Below, in pieces: positions 4,344-28,272 of a DNA stretch of 64,000 nt. The position numbers and the translations under genes were made by a program. Location of the stretch: assembly GCA_016432425.1 (NCBI GenBank), contig CP066688.1:642619-706618 (forward strand), given 5' to 3'. Source of the stretch: Candidatus Daviesbacteria bacterium (lineage in GTDB: Bacteria; Patescibacteriota; Microgenomatia; Daviesbacterales; UBA10151). Each line of letters begins with the position of its first letter. Position 1 is the first letter of the stretch. The notes beneath the pieces were generated by a model that saw only the letters and a program-made list of their open reading frames with translations, made no database searches and was not told where the DNA came from.

Positions 4344-5054
4344 ATGGCGCTAACCCATGCAATTATTTTAGCTGGAGGAGAAGGGAAAAGACTGCGTCCT
4401 CATACCGATCGTAAGCCCAAACCCTTGGTAGAGGTAGGGGGTAAACCCATCATGGCTTACCAACTGGATCAGCTAAAGAAGGCAAGGGTTAAAAATTTAG
4501 TCATTGCCTGTAGTTATAAAAAAGAAGTTTTGATTGAATATTTAACTGGTAATGGGTATGGATTTGACCACATTTCTTTTTCAGTGGAGGAGACTCCGCT
4601 GGGGCGTGGCGGGGGTATTAAACAGGCCATGAAGTTTTTGCCGGCTGACTGGGAACAGGTAATCGTGGCTAATGGCGATAACCTGTGGAAATTTAATATT
4701 GAAGCGATGGTGAAAAAACACCAAGAAAGAAATGCCATCGCCACAGTGCTTTTGGTGAAACTGAAAAGCCCCTACGGAATAGTAGAAGTAAATGATCAAG
4801 ATGAGATTGAGACTTTTCAAGAAAAGCCCATTTTGCCCCATTGGCTAAATGCCGGAGTTTACATTTTCTCCCGGGAGATTGAGCCACTTTTGCCTAATAT
4901 TGGCGATCACGAAGATCAAACTTTCCCTAAATTACCCAAGGAGAGGTTTATTGCTTTTAAAAGTGAAGGTTATTGGAAAGCAGTGGATACAGTAAAAGAC
5001 TTGGAAGAAGCGGAAAAAGAAGTTAGGGAGATTTTTTCTTTGTCGATGGGGTAG
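4344..5054 (+). CDS. Sugar-phosphate nucleotidyltransferase (NTP_transferase family)
   Basis: The N-terminus AIILAGGEGKRLRP...KPLVEVGGKPI is the G(x)GxR glycine-rich loop of sugar-1-P nucleotidyltransferases. Confidence 0.75.
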   Translation: MALTHAIILAGGEGKRLRPHTDRKPKPLVEVGGKPIMAYQLDQLKKARVKNLVIACSYKKEVLIEYLTGNGYGFDHISFSVEETPLGRGGGIKQAMKFLPADWEQVIVANGDNLWKFNIEAMVKKHQERNAIATVLLVKLKSPYGIVEVNDQDEIETFQEKPILPHWLNAGVYIFSREIEPLLPNIGDHEDQTFPKLPKERFIAFKSEGYWKAVDTVKDLEEAEKEVREIFSLSMG

Positions 5055-5808
5055 TTGGTTTTGCTGATTTAGTGGCAGATTCTGCTGAGGGAGTGGCAAT
5101 CTTTTTAGGTTTTAAGAAAGCTGGTTGGGAATAGATATAGACAAAATCAGCTGTCAGAATTTCATTTTTTCCCATCACTCCGGTGACAATCACAAAATTA
5201 TTTTTTGAAAGCTGCGATAAACTTACTGCTTGGCCATCTTTTTCTAAATCAGTTGAACTTACTGCAATAGTCACATTTTTCCCCTCTTTGGTGGTCAGAG
5301 TGACTAACTCATCAGCGATAGAGATAACCTGGCCCCACAGATGAGTTTTAACCTCTGGAGAGGGGGTAGGCCAGAGGATTACTTTTTTGGCAGTTAAAAC
5401 TCCATTTTCATCCACATCCCCTAAAGCTGCTATAAAATCCTCTGCCTGTAAGATTTTGAGGGAGTATTTGCTAATTTTTTTGTTATTACTGCTAAACTCG
5501 CTATCTTGGTTAATGCTAACAATTTTTGCCCCACTGTCAGTCGCTAAAGTTAAAGAAGCTTCCGATTTAAGTGTAACCATACCCACGTAAGCTTTATTTT
5601 GTAAATTTTTATTAACTTCCTGTTTCAACTGGGCTGCCTTAGAAGCAATCTCTTTTTGCAAGGCAGAGAGTTTCTCTTTTAAATTTGCAGAAGTACTGTT
5701 TTCAGCAGCATAAACATGGGATATGGGATAAGAATTAAGTATTAAGGGTAATACAAAAAGCAATAACCCCACAATACATAATACTAGACCCTTTTCCCTA
5801 ATTCTCAT
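5023..5808 (-). CDS. Secreted hypothetical protein (signal peptide, Lys/Ser/Thr-rich C-terminal tail)
   Basis: The N-terminus MRIREKGLVLCIVGLLLFVLPLILNSYPISHVYAAE is a signal peptide. It is near-identical to the N-terminus of CDS 26499. Confidence 0.6.
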   Translation of the reverse strand: MRIREKGLVLCIVGLLLFVLPLILNSYPISHVYAAENSTSANLKEKLSALQKEIASKAAQLKQEVNKNLQNKAYVGMVTLKSEASLTLATDSGAKIVSINQDSEFSSNNKKISKYSLKILQAEDFIAALGDVDENGVLTAKKVILWPTPSPEVKTHLWGQVISIADELVTLTTKEGKNVTIAVSSTDLEKDGQAVSLSQLSKNNFVIVTGVMGKNEILTADFVYIYSQPAFLKPKKIATPSAESATKSAKPTTPSTKKKSP

Positions 5809-21850: not shown

Positions 21851-22404
21851 ACCTTTATTTTTAAGTACAAATTTATTAAATTAGTTTGTTAAGACAACAT
21901 AATTTAGAGATGGAGTAGAGGAGTCCTTAGACTTCATTCAGGACAGGCGTGAAAAATTTGAGCGAATATCGTGAAAAATCTAAATGATGTAGTGTGATAT
22001 AGTTGACAGGCACGAATGTGGAAAACTATGGGGTGTTTATTCATTTCGCTTGACATCTCCTTTCAGTAGGTAAGACTAAACCTTCTTAATTTAGAGATGA
22101 GATAAACACTCACTCTCTTAAGATGGCTGCTAAAGTTCTTACATAAGCGTGAAAAATAACCGAAGGGCCTCTAGGGAGTAGGGGCAACCTGGTTTCCAAA
22201 AGAAGCGATGGATCCTAGAAGATAAAAGCGTGTTTAAATCTCTTTTTGGTACCTGTTTGTGCGTATACTTCTCTTTATAAATGATACATTCCTATTATGT
22301 TGTCGCACAATGTATCTTATGCGGCGTCAAGGAAGAGATATTTGGGGAGGAGTGGTTCTAATTGAGGAACTAAAAGGAACAAAATTTAGCTAGATTTTTT
22401 ACAC

Positions 22405-22704
22405 TTACTTTTGGGTACCTATTTGCTTACCTTGCCCATCAAAAATTTTTTTATTTTCACAAAATTTTTTCATGTACCACAATTCCTTGTTTGGGGCTTT
22501 GCAGAGCCCTAATATGGGATGACTACTTGTACTGCTCCTCTCCCCATCAGCCGTTTTTGGGCCATTTACGGGCTTCAACTTAATTAGGTTTACAGGATGG
22601 CTTGTCTGATCAAAAAGTACCGCTCGTACTGTAGAAACTTGCTCGCTATAGATTTGTTGAGGCACCAATATGTCTTTATAATCATTTAGTCCTCGGTAGC
22701 TCAT
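22405..22704 (-). CDS. Hypothetical protein (99 aa) inside an otherwise non-coding 1-kb region
   Basis: ORF only, with no SD. Confidence 0.25.
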   Translation of the reverse strand: MSYRGLNDYKDILVPQQIYSEQVSTVRAVLFDQTSHPVNLIKLKPVNGPKTADGERSSTSSHPILGLCKAPNKELWYMKKFCENKKIFDGQGKQIGTQK

Positions 22705-22888
22705 TGGTTACTTTTGACTGCGGTGTCTTTAAATTATTTTTATAACTTTTACTTCGTTGTCGGACAATATTTTGACTAATTTAGTTAAGAGATGAAAATG
22801 ATGCTTGTGTTACCCAGTAACTTCCCTCTTTATTTAAGTTGACAAACTTACGCCTAATCCTCTAATGTAAATATATACATATATAATA

Positions 22889-23134
22889 ATGAATTCCGGC
22901 TCAATATTTACCAAAAATAACCTTATTACCCTACTCTTTTTAGCCATTTTAATTTTAGCTATTCCCCTGGCAGTTAAACTGGCCCAACAAACCCAGATTT
23001 TTAAATCTAAGGCAGGTAGCACTCCCATCCAATTTTCCGGCACCGGAGTGGATTGTGCCGGCACGAGTTGTACCACTACCAATACTAATGTAAACGTGAT
23101 TTTAAATTCCTGTTTTGAAGATAGCAGCTGCTAA
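22889..23134 (+). CDS. Small N-terminally anchored Cys-rich protein. It is a paralog of the N-terminus of the next gene.
   Basis: NNLITLLFLAILILAIPLAVKLAQQTQIFKSKAGS compared with KNIFVFLFLAIVAVAIPVSLKLAQEQTQLKSKAAE in CDS 23137. The two also share the DNA string AAACTGGCCCAA.AACAAACCCAG. Confidence 0.55.
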   Translation: MNSGSIFTKNNLITLLFLAILILAIPLAVKLAQQTQIFKSKAGSTPIQFSGTGVDCAGTSCTTTNTNVNVILNSCFEDSSC

Positions 23135-23136
23135 CT

Positions 23137-25854
23137 ATGGATGAACTAAAGGTTGTCTCCAAAAAAAATATTTTTGTTTTTTTATTTTTAGCGATTGTGG
23201 CTGTAGCTATCCCTGTTTCTTTAAAACTGGCCCAAGAACAAACCCAGCTTAAATCAAAAGCAGCGGAAAAGGATTTTTCTTGCACCCTGCCAACAGTTAC
23301 CTCTTCTGCTAAAATTGGCGATTCACTGGTAGTGCGGGTGGGTGGAAGTGTCACCAACTATCCCAATAGCAGCATGAGTAAAATATTGGTTTATATTAAA
23401 GCTCCTGGTCAAAGCTTTACTGAGATAGGTTCAGTAAGTTGTTCCGGATCGACTCAAGATTGTAGTGGTTCCGTACCATGGGATACCGGTAGCCAGAATA
23501 ATGGTCCGGGTAGCTATGTTGTTGCTGAAAGGTTAATTAACACTAATGGTGGAGAAAGAAATAGCGATGGTAATGATCAATTTTGCCAGGCAAATCTTAC
23601 TTTAGCAGCCCAGTCTCAACCAGCTCCTGCTGTTCCTGCCCCTGCTCAACCTCCCCCAGCTAACCAGCCACCGATTGCAGAATGTAGCGCCGGCACAACT
23701 GATTATGCTAATTGCCGTGCTTGTGGAACAGATGGAAAATGGTTTTTAGATTATGGCCCTAAAAGTGATACTACCCAATGGTGCGCCTGCGCCAGAACCA
23801 AATCAGGTGCCTCTTTTACCACTGACCCCCAATATTCTATCTGCTCCGGTGGAGGGCCGCAAGCTGCCCTACCTGCTGATGCAGCTGAGTGCGGAGGCAT
23901 AACCTTTAAACAAAATAATCAAGAAGTTAAAGCCCCGGCTTCTTTAATGGCAGGACAAACATATGACGTAGAAATTAAAATGGATAACCGTGATTCCGGA
24001 AATTCCAACTACACCCCCACTACCTGGACTAGCGGTCAATATTTCTTAGGCTTTCCTACCAGTGGTCCTCCGCGGGATGCCGGAGTGGGTAATTTCCAAA
24101 TTAATAATGATGACGTAGCTAAAAATGATATCTGGCAAGCAAACTGGCCCGATCCTAAAAAGTTACGTTTGCCTCTTTCTGGCAGTGTCACACCCGGGAG
24201 TTCCAATACCTTTAAATTTAAAGTTACTCCCAAGACTGCTGGGGATCATACTTTTTATTGGGGTATGGTCCATGAGGGGGTGCAGTGGTTTGGCGGACAA
24301 TGTGCTTCTAATGTTAAGGTGGCCGCCTCAACCGGAGGCACAGGTGGACAACAGCCGGGCGGACAACAACCTCCATCTGGAACTTTAAAAACTAAATGCT
24401 ATGTTCTTTCCCAAGATGCGGGGGCGGTTAATAATGTGACCAGCTGCACTGATACTTTGGCCCAACCTTATACCAGTAATAACCTGCAAGTTGCTAAAAC
24501 TTTACAAAATAAAACTAAAGATGGAGACGAGAATACTTTCTATGTTAAATTTATTAGTACTGCCGGTACCCAAAGCCAGGTTTTCTCCAAAAAGATTACC
24601 TACAAGACTACTGAAGCCGGAGGTGAAACTGCCCCCACCATTACCAATGTTGACTGCCGGCAAAACCTTATTACGGTGACCGGCACTAATTTTGGCGCCC
24701 AACAAGGCAGCGGTAAATTAACAGCCAATGGGCAACAAGCGACTGTAGCCAGTTGGAACCCTACCACTATCACTGCCACCCCCCGCCAATCTTTAGAGGG
24801 AAACATTGCAGTCGAGATTAGCTTGGGAGATAAGCAAACCGTCTCCAGCCAGTGCAGCGTCAACACCACCACTGTTAACTTTACAGCTTTAAATTCCTGC
24901 CGAAGACCGGGGGATGATTTTAGCGCCACTGATGTCGAGGTAAAAATTTATGATGCGACCGAGACTAATGTGCAGGCTCAGCCTTTGGTAGAGCAAACAA
25001 TTTCTTTGAATAAATCCGGTAAACTAGCCAACTTTGCTCCCAAGCTGTTGCAAGGTAAGCAATATACTTTGCTTGTTAAAGCTCCCAATACTTTGCCTCA
25101 GGCTAAAACTTTTACCCCCACTGGTGGTACCTATAATATAGGTACACTGACCTTACCAGCCGGTGATTTACTGCCTTTAAGTTTGCCGGAAGGAGAAAAA
25201 CCTAAAATTAATAGTTTTGATGCCAATGAGCTAAAGCGTCAATGGAGATTATTAACTGATGTGACCAGCCCGGCAGATTTAAATAAAGATGAACGGATTA
25301 ATAGTATTGATTACTCTTGTCTTTTGGCAGGTTACAACAAAGAGGGAGATACCTTTACTCCGGCTACTTTACCAACTGAACAGGGATGTACCAATCCCGT
25401 TTCTTGCGAAACTACTGTGACTTTTTCTGCTAATAATACCACGCCAGCAATTGGGAAAAATGTAACTTTTCAAGGTAAATTGACTGGTTTTGATGGTCAC
25501 CCGATTCCTGGAAAAGTTATCAAAATTGTTAATGTTGATACAAATACAGTACTGGCTGACTCTACCCAATCAAATAACCAGGGAACACATAATACTGACC
25601 TAAACGGCGATTATCTGATTCTTTTGCCTATCAACAGCGCAACTGAGTTTAATGTGAGGGCCAAATTTGATGGCGATGGTTCAAATAAACCTTCTCAGAG
25701 TGAACCAATTAAAATCAATCCGAATTCCTCTTCAAGTGGAGCTTGTATCCAGGTGGTGACTCCGGCCAGAAATCCGACTACCAATGCTTGTATTAATTTC
25801 CCGACACCCTGTGATGTACCGGCTGGATGGCAAGTGGTGTCGAGTTGTAATTAG
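23137..25854 (+). CDS. Large (905 aa) Cys/Thr/Gly-rich surface protein with an N-terminal TM anchor, a Pro-rich linker, an IPT/TIG-like domain and a dockerin-like module
   Basis: The IPT/TIG-like segment is ITNVDCRQNLITVTGTNFGAQQGSGKLTANGQQATVASWNPTTITAT (about nt 24634-24832). The dockerin-like Ca-binding repeat is INSFDANELKRQW...DLNKDERINSIDYSCLLAGY (about nt 25198-25336). Confidence 0.65.
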   Translation: MDELKVVSKKNIFVFLFLAIVAVAIPVSLKLAQEQTQLKSKAAEKDFSCTLPTVTSSAKIGDSLVVRVGGSVTNYPNSSMSKILVYIKAPGQSFTEIGSVSCSGSTQDCSGSVPWDTGSQNNGPGSYVVAERLINTNGGERNSDGNDQFCQANLTLAAQSQPAPAVPAPAQPPPANQPPIAECSAGTTDYANCRACGTDGKWFLDYGPKSDTTQWCACARTKSGASFTTDPQYSICSGGGPQAALPADAAECGGITFKQNNQEVKAPASLMAGQTYDVEIKMDNRDSGNSNYTPTTWTSGQYFLGFPTSGPPRDAGVGNFQINNDDVAKNDIWQANWPDPKKLRLPLSGSVTPGSSNTFKFKVTPKTAGDHTFYWGMVHEGVQWFGGQCASNVKVAASTGGTGGQQPGGQQPPSGTLKTKCYVLSQDAGAVNNVTSCTDTLAQPYTSNNLQVAKTLQNKTKDGDENTFYVKFISTAGTQSQVFSKKITYKTTEAGGETAPTITNVDCRQNLITVTGTNFGAQQGSGKLTANGQQATVASWNPTTITATPRQSLEGNIAVEISLGDKQTVSSQCSVNTTTVNFTALNSCRRPGDDFSATDVEVKIYDATETNVQAQPLVEQTISLNKSGKLANFAPKLLQGKQYTLLVKAPNTLPQAKTFTPTGGTYNIGTLTLPAGDLLPLSLPEGEKPKINSFDANELKRQWRLLTDVTSPADLNKDERINSIDYSCLLAGYNKEGDTFTPATLPTEQGCTNPVSCETTVTFSANNTTPAIGKNVTFQGKLTGFDGHPIPGKVIKIVNVDTNTVLADSTQSNNQGTHNTDLNGDYLILLPINSATEFNVRAKFDGDGSNKPSQSEPIKINPNSSSSGACIQVVTPARNPTTNACINFPTPCDVPAGWQVVSSCN

Positions 25855-25872
25855 AGATGTTAAGATATAAAT

Positions 25873-26502
25873 ATGGATAACCAAAATTTAAATTTGCCTA
25901 CAATTTCTCGGTTTTCCCCAATGAAGATAGTGTTTATTTTATTGGGGTTGGTTATTGTAGGTGAGGTCATTTGGGCCATTAGTCAGCTGACTACAGTTGG
26001 TTTGCCCACCCAAACCAACAACGCTACTGTGCCTAAAAATGTAGTCACTCCTGTTTCAATTGCCCAGGTAACTTTAAGCTCAGATAAAACTTCTGTTAAG
26101 GTGGGTGACAAAATTACAGTAGCCATCAATGTTTCCGCCAATAAAGAAACTGATGGGACAGATTTGATCATTAATTTTGACCCCACTTTGTTAAATGTTG
26201 ACACTCAAAACGAGAAAAAAGTTCCGGTAGTGACCGGCCAAATCTATCCTGACTATCCGGTTAATAGTTTGGATTCAGCCAAGGGCAAGATTACTGTCTC
26301 CGGAATTGCTTCTGCCCCTGGTGGAGTGGTGACTAACGGAGTTTTCGGGACTCTAAATTTAATGGCTAAAGCCCCCGGTACAGCCAAGCTTACCTTAGAG
26401 TTTACAAAAGGATCGACAACTGATACAAATGTAATAGAGGCCGGAGTGGGCACAGATATATTAAATAGTGTTTCTGATTTAACAATTAATATTACACCAT
26501 GA
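25873..26502 (+). CDS. Cohesin-like domain protein with an N-terminal TM anchor
   Basis: VKVGDKITVAINVSA...GTDLIINFDPTLLNV...GKITVSGIAS...GVFGTLNLMAKAPGTAKLTLEF follows the cohesin beta-sandwich sequence pattern. Confidence 0.6.
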   Translation: MDNQNLNLPTISRFSPMKIVFILLGLVIVGEVIWAISQLTTVGLPTQTNNATVPKNVVTPVSIAQVTLSSDKTSVKVGDKITVAINVSANKETDGTDLIINFDPTLLNVDTQNEKKVPVVTGQIYPDYPVNSLDSAKGKITVSGIASAPGGVVTNGVFGTLNLMAKAPGTAKLTLEFTKGSTTDTNVIEAGVGTDILNSVSDLTINITP

Positions 26503-27260
26503 AAATTAGAATTAAGGGATTAGTACTGTGTAGTGCGAGTTTATTGTTTTTGTTGTTACCCTTAATACTTAATTCTAATCCCATATCTCATGTTTACGCT
26601 GCTCAGGCAACTTTAAGCCTCTCCCCTGCCAGTGGTACAGTCAACCGTAGTTGCGCTTTTGCCTTGGAGGTAAATTTAGATACCGGAGGAGGCCAAACTG
26701 ATGGAACTGATGCTATTTTGCTCTACGATACTTCAGTTTTTTCTGCCACCTCGATTAATAAAGGTACTATTTACCAGGAATATCCTGGGACCGCAATAGA
26801 TGATAGCGCCGGTAGAGTCACTATCTCGGGGCTCGCTTCTGTGACCCAATCTTTTTCCGGCCAGGGCAAGCTCGCAACTGTTAATTTATTAGTCAAAGAT
26901 ACCGCCCCCACCGGCACTTCCCAAATTAAATTTGATTTTGACCCCAGCAACCCACAAAAAACTACTGACTCTAATGTGGTAGAACACACTAGCGTGGCAG
27001 AAATTTTAAGCTCAGTGACCAATGGAAATTATACTGTGGGGACTGGAACTTGTACTGGAACTGACTTAAATGGGAGTGGAGTCGGTGGAAGTAAAGGTGG
27101 AACTGGGGTGGAAACGACTCCTTCAGGACAGCTTAAAACTCTTCCTGCTGACCAGTTTAAAACCCTTCCCCCAGCTGGTAATGAAAAGCTTACTTTTACC
27201 TTAGCCATTTTAGGTTCTACCTTAACTATTCTGGGAATTCTTGGTTTAGTTTTACTGTAA
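26499..27260 (+). CDS. Cohesin-like domain protein with a signal peptide and a C-terminal LPxAG-like motif plus hydrophobic anchor
   Basis: The signal peptide MKIRIKGLVLC...NPISHVYAAQ is near-identical to that of CDS 5023-5808. The cohesin-like core reads ASGTVNRSCAFALEVNLD...GTDAILLYDTSVFS...GRVTISGLAS...GKLATVNLLVKDTAPTGTSQIKFDF. The C-terminus is LPPAGNEKLTFTLAILGSTLTILGILGLVLL. Confidence 0.6.
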   Translation: MKIRIKGLVLCSASLLFLLLPLILNSNPISHVYAAQATLSLSPASGTVNRSCAFALEVNLDTGGGQTDGTDAILLYDTSVFSATSINKGTIYQEYPGTAIDDSAGRVTISGLASVTQSFSGQGKLATVNLLVKDTAPTGTSQIKFDFDPSNPQKTTDSNVVEHTSVAEILSSVTNGNYTVGTGTCTGTDLNGSGVGGSKGGTGVETTPSGQLKTLPADQFKTLPPAGNEKLTFTLAILGSTLTILGILGLVLL

Positions 27261-27318
27261 TTATTGTTTGTCGGACAATCTTGACCCTTCGACTTCGCTC
27301 AGGGTAAACTATATTTAG

Positions 27319-28272
27319 ATGACTTTATCTAGTTTAATTACTGATTTTTTAGAATATTTAGAGTTGGAACGAAATACTTCTCAGTTAACCATTAAAAATT
27401 ATGACCATTATCTTAAGCGTTTCTTAAGCTTTGCCCGTTCGACAGGCTCAGGGCAGGCTGGTGATATCGATCCCAAAGAGATTGATTTAAATTTAGTCAA
27501 AAAATACCGCCTATATCTTTCCCGCTACAGTGACCCGGTCACTAAAAAATCCTTAAAACGAGTCACGCAAAATTATTTTTTAATTGCCCTGCGGGCCTTT
27601 TTGCGATTTCTCTCCCGCCAAGATATCGAGAGTTTATCAGCAGAAAAAATTGAACTGGGTGAAAGTGAAGCCCGGCCTTTGAAAGTTTTAGAAGATAGTC
27701 AGCTACAGTTAATTTTACAAGGACCGGATACCGGCAAAAAGGAAGGTTTGCGGGACCGGGCCATCTTAGAAACACTTTTCTCCACTGGTTTGCGGGTTTC
27801 GGAGCTGACTTCTTTAAACCGGGATACCATTAATTTAGAAAGGCGGGAGTTTTCTATTGTTGGTAAAGGTCAAAAAGAGCGGATTGTCTTTTTGTCGGAT
27901 GCAGCAACAGTGTGGCTGGAAAAATATTTGAGTGCCCGCAAAGACAGCTTTAAACCCCTGTTTATCCGTTTTCAGGGAAGAGTGGAAGTAGCAGATAGTG
28001 GTGAGGCAATGAGGCTGTCGGCCCGCTCTGTAGAGCGGATTGTGGAAAAATATGTTAAAGCGGCCGGGTTGCCTGTCAAGGCCACCCCCCATACTCTCCG
28101 TCACAGCTTTGCTACCGATTTGTTAATTAATGGGGCTGATATTCGCTCAGTGCAGGAGATGCTGGGACACTCTTCTATCCAAACTACCCAAATTTATACC
28201 CATGTAACTAATAAACATCTCAAAGATGTCCACAAAGCTTTTCACTCAGGGAACAAGGATTCGGATCAATGA
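27319..28272 (+). CDS. xerC: Tyrosine site-specific recombinase XerC/XerD
   Basis: HTLRHSFATDLLINGADIRSVQEMLGHSSIQTTQIYTHV carries the R..H..R..Y catalytic tetrad region. A TTGACC-N18-TAAACT promoter-like sequence lies upstream. Confidence 0.85.
   Translation: MTLSSLITDFLEYLELERNTSQLTIKNYDHYLKRFLSFARSTGSGQAGDIDPKEIDLNLVKKYRLYLSRYSDPVTKKSLKRVTQNYFLIALRAFLRFLSRQDIESLSAEKIELGESEARPLKVLEDSQLQLILQGPDTGKKEGLRDRAILETLFSTGLRVSELTSLNRDTINLERREFSIVGKGQKERIVFLSDAATVWLEKYLSARKDSFKPLFIRFQGRVEVADSGEAMRLSARSVERIVEKYVKAAGLPVKATPHTLRHSFATDLLINGADIRSVQEMLGHSSIQTTQIYTHVTNKHLKDVHKAFHSGNKDSDQ

Follow-up and report, generated by a model that had tools for sequence, protein, structure and literature searches.

A probable non-cellulosomal cohesin-dockerin surface display operon in Candidatus Daviesbacteria

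Little is known of how CPR bacteria (candidate phyla radiation, Patescibacteria) attach to a host or a surface, and most of the large proteins on their cell surface carry no annotation. A four-gene cluster at positions 22,889 to 27,260 of a 64,000-nt stretch of Candidatus Daviesbacteria DNA (contig CP066688.1 of GenBank assembly GCA_016432425.1, positions 642,619 to 706,618; the whole stretch is hereafter the window) raises this question in a specific form: does this small-genome groundwater CPR bacterium, represented by a metagenome-assembled genome, use cohesin and dockerin modules to display proteins on its surface? From the domain content, predicted topology and cross-species linkage of the cluster, we consider it probable that the locus is a non-cellulosomal cohesin-dockerin cell-surface display operon. 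A first-pass annotation, made from the letters of the DNA, had described four co-oriented genes and quoted several peptide motifs from them; the motifs are found in the open reading frames (ORFs), and the ORF list of the window confirms the four genes, all on the + strand. The cluster and its modules are as follows.

22889..23134, + strand: small protein, 81 aa (ORF, hydropathy)
23137..25854, + strand: dockerin-bearing adhesin-like protein, 905 aa (Pfam TIG and Dockerin_1, weak Big_3_5)
24661..24858, + strand: IPT/TIG domain of the 905-aa protein, residues 509-574 (Pfam PF01833, 28.3 bits, cutoff 20.9)
25162..25341, + strand: dockerin module of the 905-aa protein, residues ~676-735 (Pfam and family profile)
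25873..26502, + strand: cohesin 1 (coh1), 209 aa (Pfam Cohesin, AlphaFold2, Foldseek)
26499..27260, + strand: cohesin 2 (coh2), 253 aa (Pfam Cohesin, hhalign to coh1)

The genes are closely packed, with 2 nt between the first and second, 18 nt between the second and third, and a 4-nt ATGA overlap between the third and fourth, and are predicted to be transcribed together as one operon. An NCBIfam scan of the cluster and the neighbouring gene named only the Xer-type recombinase downstream, and a Pfam scan of the four cluster proteins found no carbohydrate-active enzyme (CAZyme), carbohydrate-binding module (CBM), glycoside hydrolase (GH) or S-layer homology (SLH) domain, in agreement with the small-genome, likely non-cellulolytic organism that had been supposed at first reading.

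The cohesin-like pattern recognized in the third and fourth proteins is borne out by Pfam Cohesin (PF00963), with scores of 30.9 bits (coh1) and 32.7 bits (coh2) over a gathering cutoff of 24.1. In coh1, a short cytoplasmic N-terminus is followed by a transmembrane (TM) helix at residues 19-37, a linker of ~25 aa and the cohesin domain at residues 62-209 (nt 26056-26499). The AlphaFold2 (AF2) model places a helix at residues 16-43, in agreement with the TM segment found by hydropathy, and all coh1 orthologs share this layout of a short cytoplasmic stretch and a TM helix, in which E-(V/I)-I-W-A is conserved. The predicted local distance difference test score (pLDDT) of the model is 84 for the full protein and, in 10-residue blocks across residues 61-209, 86-98. 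A Foldseek comparison of the model with the PDB returned cohesins for all of the best 50 matches (E 3.5e-9 to 6e-7, target-normalised TM-score up to 0.78), among them OlpA (3ul4), OlpC (4dh2), ScaE (2zf9) and, at ranks 25-26, the non-cellulosomal 2xdh and 2jh2; a coh1 profile built from 25 sequences matched cohesins only when compared with all PDB sequences. As modelled, coh1 has the flattened beta-sandwich (jelly-roll) fold of cohesins.

The layout of coh2 is different: a predicted Sec-type signal peptide ending in VYA before AQ, a cohesin domain at residues ~36-180, a Gly/Thr-rich linker, the motif K-T-L-P-P-A-G-N-E (nt 27165-27185) and a C-terminal TM segment (nt 27189-27257) whose hydrophobic residues 235-253 run to the protein end. 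Hydropathy and AF2 thus agree with the anchoring first proposed for the two proteins, one by an N-terminal TM helix and the other by a signal-like segment plus a C-terminal hydrophobic anchor. All coh2 orthologs carry a classical signal peptide, and their C-terminus is near-invariant in the 38 loci described below, with K-T-L-P-(P/Q)-(A/S)-G-x-E followed by a hydrophobic run ending in ...LGILGLALL; a basic tail after this run is missing in most. The coh2 C-terminus could act as a signal for a sortase or simply as a TM anchor; the sortase motif TLxTC is absent from every window ORF. Aligned with the coh1 profile by hhalign (99.8% probability, E = 1e-28, 138 columns), coh2 is a paralog of coh1. 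Its own profile, built with 4 or with 26 sequences, matched no cohesin among PDB sequences, so that its identity rests on Pfam and on the alignment to coh1. The coh2 family comprises 657 clusters at 90% identity. Databases already carry the domain tags, as precomputed Pfam matches and, on at least one ortholog, as the NCBI name 'cohesin domain-containing protein'. Elsewhere in the window, a 261-aa protein (5026-5808, - strand) with a weak DUF5666-like match and no cohesin domain begins with almost the same signal peptide as coh2 (MRIREKGLVLC...PLILNSYPISHVYAAE and MKIRIKGLVLC...PLILNSNPISHVYAAQ, respectively).

The module that would engage these cohesins lies in the 905-aa protein. Its second repeat has a canonical calcium-binding loop, DLNKDERINSID (25276-25311), with ligands D1, N3, D5, N9 and D12, followed by a helix. 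In the first repeat the helix is kept (INSFDANELKRQW; ANELKRQW) and the loop is broken by an insertion of ~7 residues (GDLLPLSLPEGEKPKINSFD), so the window module does not have the two canonical loops of a type I dockerin. Because repeat 2 is canonical and the loop of repeat 1 is interrupted, we read it as a derived, one-canonical-loop dockerin. A dockerin profile from 12 orthologs retrieved almost only dockerins from PDB sequences, with the type I dockerin of CelS (1daq) as best match (E = 8.8e-8); the non-dockerin matches were a serine protease at E = 0.0045 and weak ones near E = 1. At the orthologous position in other species, the Dockerin_1 cutoff is reached in seven of nine proteins (22.9-39.2 bits), and distant orthologs have a fully canonical two-repeat dockerin there, for example P0035 (GDYNGDGAINNFD...CDVNRDGFCNSFE). 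In most Daviesbacteria the first Ca2+ loop is lengthened by an insertion of 4 residues (GDIAPxxxPDGxINxxD), and across the family the first-loop insertions range from +1 to +11 residues. In a tally of 41 family dockerins, all five ligand positions of loop 2 are canonical in 39 of 40, a canonical length of loop 1 is found in only 6 of 37, and helix 1 (ELKRQW) is the best-conserved stretch of the module. The window dockerin has an internal position, followed by a tail of 158 aa; family members mostly have theirs within 0-30 aa of the C-terminus. A single loop is compatible with binding in a known case, the group-2 dockerins of Ruminococcus flavefaciens, which have one Ca2+ loop and yet bind the cell-anchoring ScaE cohesin (PMC12270676).

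What the dockerin would carry varies widely between species. The 905-aa protein, described at first as Cys/Thr/Gly-rich with an IPT/TIG domain, indeed contains 2.7% Cys, 10.9% Thr and 8.6% Gly, its TIG domain scores above the Pfam cutoff, and hydropathy finds one N-terminal hydrophobic segment. Its parts follow in the order N-terminal secretion/anchor motif, variable Cys-rich half, TIG, beta-sandwich, dockerin, Ig-like domain and 4-Cys C-terminal module. Homologs, even those of close relatives, have no more in common with it than the N-terminal ~45 aa and the TIG-to-dockerin core; matches cover 24-78% of the query. The companion domains of the dockerin proteins differ among species (TIG, fn3, SdrD_B, DUF1554, a weak GH5-like match, and one cohesin-plus-dockerin adaptor), and on this ground we regard the cohesins as constant and the cargo as shuffled.

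Further features of the cargo proteins were observed in single loci. The 4-Cys mini-module that ends the large protein (25738-25851, residues 868-905; C.QV.T.A.N..T..C..FPT.C..P.GW.....C) recurs at unrelated positions in P0032, twice in P0034, and in a 655-aa protein of locus L006. In L004/L014 (4830-8285), a large protein has a ~220-aa HExxH domain (TVHELSHVWWH) after the dockerin, which may be a metalloprotease cargo. In L028 (6833-8386), one protein combines a cohesin-like N-terminus (21.9 bits) with a dockerin and resembles an adaptor scaffoldin.

At the start of most dockerin proteins, a hydrophobic segment leads into (A)IPxxxxLxxxQQxx(K/R)S(K/R)A, a motif that they have in common with the small protein. 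It occurs in the window at 22889-23010 and 23137-23262 and, among relatives, in most dockerin proteins of L009-L046, and has no entry in NCBIfam or Pfam. About a quarter of the dockerin proteins begin with a classical cleavable signal peptide in its place. Since the two are interchangeable among orthologs, we infer an export function for the motif, with possible cleavage after S-(K/R)-A; it may be an export or sorting signal specific to this lineage. In the proteins with a cleavable signal peptide, the dockerin is the sole visible means of cell retention.

The 81-aa protein agrees with its initial description as small, anchored and Cys-rich: an N-terminal hydrophobic segment with the motif LFLAILILAIPLAVKLAQQTQIFKSKA precedes ~40 aa containing four Cys (4.9% Cys overall). 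It matched nothing in Pfam or NCBIfam, and orthologs of 81-132 aa are present in many loci. In eight loci (L017, L023, L029, L030, L031, L037, L040 and L045) the N-terminus of the dockerin protein is fused to the segment that forms the mature small protein (PIxFxGxxV); for this reason the 81-aa gene looks like a split-off N-terminal module.

To analyze the conservation of the cluster, one genome per species was scanned, which returned 38 loci. Co-occurrence in related genomes, which the first-pass annotation had proposed to look for, was found throughout: dockerin protein, coh1, coh2 and xerC follow one another in this order in the 38 species-level genomes. The wider order is RuvC, DUF5656, a gap of ~0.9 kb, a variable region, small protein, dockerin protein, coh1, coh2, xerC, often an ATPase, and gyrA. 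A dockerin-bearing ORF ends within 400 nt upstream of coh1 for 36 of the 37 coh1 genes with upstream sequence, xerC lies immediately downstream of coh2 in essentially all loci, and the unit of dockerin protein and coh1 is duplicated in tandem in two loci (L040, 2357-8944; L045, 2788-9438). All 38 loci belong to Daviesbacteria, Microgenomates or unclassified Patescibacteria once placeholder labels are set aside. The label 'uncultured Gammaproteobacteria bacterium' is attached to L010-L012, L016, L017, L021, L022, L025, L029, L033, L035, L039, L040, L042, L044 and L045, and we read it as a placeholder mislabel because these loci carry the Daviesbacteria synteny RuvC-DUF5656-cluster-xerC. The cluster is a vertically inherited chromosomal locus. 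Mean distances are 0.58-0.61 for the large-protein core and coh1, compared with 0.37 for coh2 and 0.29 for xerC; the former two evolve faster than the latter.

Taken together, these features suggest the following arrangement. Coh1 is held in the membrane by its N-terminal signal-anchor helix, and coh2 is exported via a cleavable signal peptide and retained by the C-terminal hydrophobic segment after the conserved LPxxG-x-E motif. The large protein is exported, with its dockerin near the C-terminal end of a conserved TIG/beta-sandwich stalk, and the dockerin would plug, in a Ca2+-dependent manner, into one or both cohesins. The fast-evolving Cys-rich Ig-like N-terminal half would then project outward as an adhesin-like binding surface, possibly serving attachment to host cells.

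Several observations weigh against this interpretation. The window module scores 22.2 bits for Pfam Dockerin_1 (PF00404, residues 690-729), 0.7 bits under the cutoff of 22.9. Its first loop is non-canonical, with P, G and K at positions 1, 3 and 5 in the register fixed by INSFD, and with N9 and D12 kept. The pair of Ca-binding repeats originally proposed has therefore held for the second repeat and not for the first, and in the profile searches suggested alongside that proposal Cohesin and TIG came out above cutoff and Dockerin_1 just under; the refutation test attached to it, on unrelated folds, came down on the side of the proposal. An AF2 model of the isolated 70-aa dockerin module (11-row alignment) is unreliable, with a pLDDT of 52; at that quality it has two helices (23-33 and 53-60), both directly following loop segments. 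In most large proteins the 19-aa N-terminal segment is strongly hydrophobic (Kyte-Doolittle 2.6), and if the N-terminal motif were an uncleaved anchor the large protein would already be membrane-bound, with the dockerin as a second tether. Many non-cellulosomal dockerins elsewhere reportedly have no known cohesin partner, according to the survey by Peer et al. of 2009.

Covariation does not settle the matter either. In a mirror-tree comparison, divergence of the dockerin tracked that of coh1 (r = 0.57; partial correlation given XerC 0.60; Mantel p ~5e-4), more weakly that of coh2 (r = 0.21), and not that of XerC. However, the adjacent Ig-like domain correlated with coh1 at r = 0.74, and the dockerin-specific partial correlation was only 0.16; after this control the dockerin-coh1 covariation was dropped as evidence for specific binding. 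What it does show is that the core of the large protein and coh1 are passed on as one unit, not that the dockerin touches coh1.

These points lend some weight to an alternative that we hold to be clearly less probable than docking but that deserves to be taken seriously: the modules are real but unpaired. The cohesins would bind glycans, host proteins or each other, the dockerin would be a Ca2+-stabilised hinge in an independently anchored adhesin, and the linkage of the genes would reflect co-expression. Such an arrangement would fit the scarcity of first loops of canonical length, the internal position of the window dockerin ahead of its long tail, the possible N-terminal anchor of most large proteins and the lack of dockerin specificity in the covariation. 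It is harder to reconcile with the near-complete linkage of dockerin-bearing ORFs to coh1 and the duplication of the two genes as a pair, with the dockerin being the single invariant module in otherwise shuffled cargo proteins, with the almost universally canonical second loop and the strongly conserved first helix, and with cargo proteins that have a cleavable signal peptide and no other anchor. We therefore retain the display operon as the preferred interpretation.

The surroundings of the cluster raise a second question, namely whether the neighbouring recombinase moves it. The relevant features are listed below.

22300..22327, + strand: dif-like Xer site, TTGTCGCACAA / TGTATC / TTATGCGGCGT; 28 bp, 11-bp inverted arms, 6-bp centre
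22757..22768, + strand: dif left-arm copy, TTGTCGGACAAT, followed by a -35-like TTGACT at 22772 and a second TTGACA at 22839
27268..27279, + strand: dif left-arm copy, exact, 1 nt before a -35-like TTGACC (27281); the -10 box ends at 27310, 9 nt before the xerC start
27319..28272, + strand: Xer-type tyrosine recombinase gene, xerC-like (Pfam Phage_integrase)

The xerC-like protein scores 150.5 bits for Phage_integrase and, in NCBIfam, 246 bits for XerC and 243 bits for XerD, both under the equivalog cutoffs; its gene is followed by a P-type ATPase gene. A probe with the core of the E. coli dif site GGTGCGCATAATGTATATTATGTTAAAT gave a single match in the window (22304-22321, two mismatches, 16/18 identical), with 0.04 expected by chance. 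The inverted arms of the dif-like site match at 7 of 11 positions in the window and at 9 of 11 in L036 and L046, and at least 16 relatives have conserved a single full site per locus, located in the gap that follows the DUF5656 gene. The GC skew falls from ~+0.1 to ~0 near 22-24 kb; this would agree with a terminus but is suggestive only.

The 12-mer TTGTCGGACAAT is found exactly at 22757 and 27268, with four matches at one mismatch or fewer compared with 0.23 expected, one of them the one-mismatch copy at 22300, which the first-pass annotation had not listed. The 12-mer is the left arm of the dif site, on the XerC side by correspondence with E. coli; the site lies 457 bp upstream of the first exact copy, and within the window the motif is confined to this locus. 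Both exact copies lack the right (XerD-side) arm and so fall short of a complete recombination site. Upstream of the first cluster gene, most relatives have the half-site TTGTCGnACAATAT, then 8-17 nt, then TTGACA, and left-arm copies at the promoter-like boxes of both the operon and xerC also occur in L008 (2379, 8287), L010 (5803, 10105) and many others; L014 and L016 have variant left-arm arrangements upstream of xerC. This placement suggests that the half-sites are either Xer operators or scars of old Xer-mediated insertions.

Additional observations concern the region upstream. In about a third of the species, a further tyrosine recombinase of 330-430 aa is encoded between DUF5656 and the cluster (L014, 3466-4473; L016, L018, L025, L027-L031, L037, L040, L045), and in these loci dif is reduced to its left arm, followed by unrelated sequence. 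The gap of the window contains two further conserved non-coding islands, 21931-22050 and 22491-22570. The former has a promoter-like TTGACA, 18 nt, TATGGG around GAATGTGGAAAACTAT and a repeated GTGAAAAAT; the counterpart of GAATGTGGAAAACTAT in L006 is a perfect DnaA-box, TGTGGATAA. In the 1-kb upstream gap, Rfam gave no non-coding RNA, either at the gathering score or with the limit relaxed to E <= 1. A 99-aa ORF at 22405-22704 (- strand), called as a gene on the source contig, shows no conservation as a coding sequence; in-frame stops interrupt it in the closest relative, L008, and the ORF is probably spurious.

A speculative extension, to which we give little credence, is that the Xer recombinase has been co-opted, either as a regulator acting at the operators and coupling adhesin display to segregation or division, or as an engine swapping cargo genes at a dif-proximal slot, in what would be a CPR-specific system of host-attachment variation. 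The cargo-swapping version would fit the differences in gene content between species, the presence of extra recombinases and the reduction of dif to its left arm seen in about a third of the species.

Still less likely is a present or recent mobile island that uses Xer recombination at dif, in the manner of integrative mobile elements exploiting Xer (IMEX), with the 12-mers as attachment remnants and xerC as its recombinase. Exact left arms in direct orientation do bracket the four genes, dif lies close upstream, and the gene content between dif and coh1 varies by species, often with the extra tyrosine recombinase and then with the left arm of dif only. Against this, the cohesin pair and dockerin protein sit between RuvC-DUF5656 and xerC-ATPase-gyrA in 38 of 38 species-level genomes, both bracketing copies are half-sites, the GC content of the cluster (0.40-0.43) is similar to that of the remaining window, and the low divergence of xerC is that of a housekeeping gene. 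The island interpretation of the flanking repeat was accordingly rejected on synteny, the cluster being neither variable in its presence nor bounded by complete attachment sites. Of the first description of this flank, the exact direct repeats and the xerC gene at the end of the cluster remain; the repeat does not mark an island boundary and corresponds to the dif left arm. A minimal cellulosome, in which the cohesins would assemble dockerin-bearing polysaccharide-degrading enzymes on the cell surface, is scarcely credible: a 491-aa protein at the locus in L006/L020 does combine a C-terminal dockerin (39.2 bits) with GH5-like matches (17.1 bits), but this sole GH-like match is below the cutoff, the cargo in nine other species is Ig-like or adhesin-like, the window cluster has no CAZyme or CBM domain, and one cohesin per protein takes the place of the multi-cohesin scaffoldin that, with a CBM and dockerin-bearing CAZymes, makes a cellulosome.

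The display operon that we prefer offers a concrete, testable hypothesis for one CPR lineage, in which constant cohesin sockets would receive a diversifying, dockerin-tagged, Ig-like plug-in adhesin. The small size and solubility of the recombinant modules make binding, Ca2+ dependence and specificity directly measurable, and the two cognate pairs in L040 and L045 provide a natural specificity test. The locus would also add to the molecular toolkit a natural series of dockerins with first-loop insertions of +1 to +11 residues and TM-anchored single cohesins. It is no conceptual surprise, as non-cellulosomal pairs have long been known and Pfam already tags the proteins.

Among described systems, the closest in layout are OlpA and OlpC of Clostridium thermocellum (3ul4, 4dh2) and ScaE of R. 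flavefaciens (2zf9, 9gvb), in which each protein likewise has one surface-held cohesin. OlpA, OlpC and ScaE directly bind a dockerin-bearing protein, and the same is proposed here for the Daviesbacteria cohesins. Olp proteins are anchored by SLH domains and ScaE by a sortase LPXTG signal. Unlike these, coh1 has an N-terminal TM helix and coh2 a C-terminal TM segment with LPxxG-x-E and no basic tail; furthermore, the Daviesbacteria cargo is Ig-like or adhesin-like in place of CAZymes, and the host is a CPR bacterium. ScaE resembles coh2 in being anchored C-terminally and binds dockerins with one Ca2+ loop (PMC12270676).

The dockerin itself is closest to the type I dockerin of C. thermocellum CelS (Cel48S; 1daq, 2mte), the best profile match, with which repeat 2 aligns residue for residue (aDlNkDgrvNs.D and ADLNEDGRVNSTD), and the first-repeat helix has K-R at the same positions as the LKRY helix of C. 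thermocellum. It differs from CelS by the first-loop insertion, 4 residues in most relatives and ~7 in the window, and by the internal position of the window module, which in CelS is C-terminal. Cohesin-dockerin pairs outside cellulosomes have been known since the 2000s as a general means of protein-protein assembly, and Peer et al. are said to have surveyed such modules in 2009. Archaeoglobus fulgidus (2xdh) and the glycosidase complexes of Clostridium perfringens (2jh2, 2ozn) are comparable to Daviesbacteria in that cohesin and dockerin modules occur in organisms that do not degrade cellulose. The Daviesbacteria locus is unlike both in being a dedicated, fixed-order operon in 38 genomes, with two differently anchored cohesins and one hypervariable cargo, and in a first dockerin loop remodelled by insertions. 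The A. fulgidus cohesin and dockerin form a functional binding pair that has been used for surface display (PMC12484212, PMC9705933).

In the literature searched, we found nothing on cohesins or dockerins in Daviesbacteria or other CPR and no report of dif in CPR; dockerin-like folds have come up in connection with giant proteins of the ultra-small Omnitrophota (bioRxiv 10.1101/2023.11.21.568195). The dif-like site resembles the E. coli dif/XerCD site in its 28-bp length, two 11-bp inverted arms and 6-bp centre, and in lying beside a Xer recombinase gene. It is unlike E. coli dif in having extra left-arm copies beside the -35 boxes of xerC and the surface operon, an arrangement of which, for dif, we know no other example. 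The Daviesbacteria locus differs from the described systems in the predicted TM anchoring of two paralogous cohesins at opposite ends, the shuffled adhesin-like cargo, the insertion hotspot in dockerin loop 1, the host lineage and the fixed place between dif and xerC.

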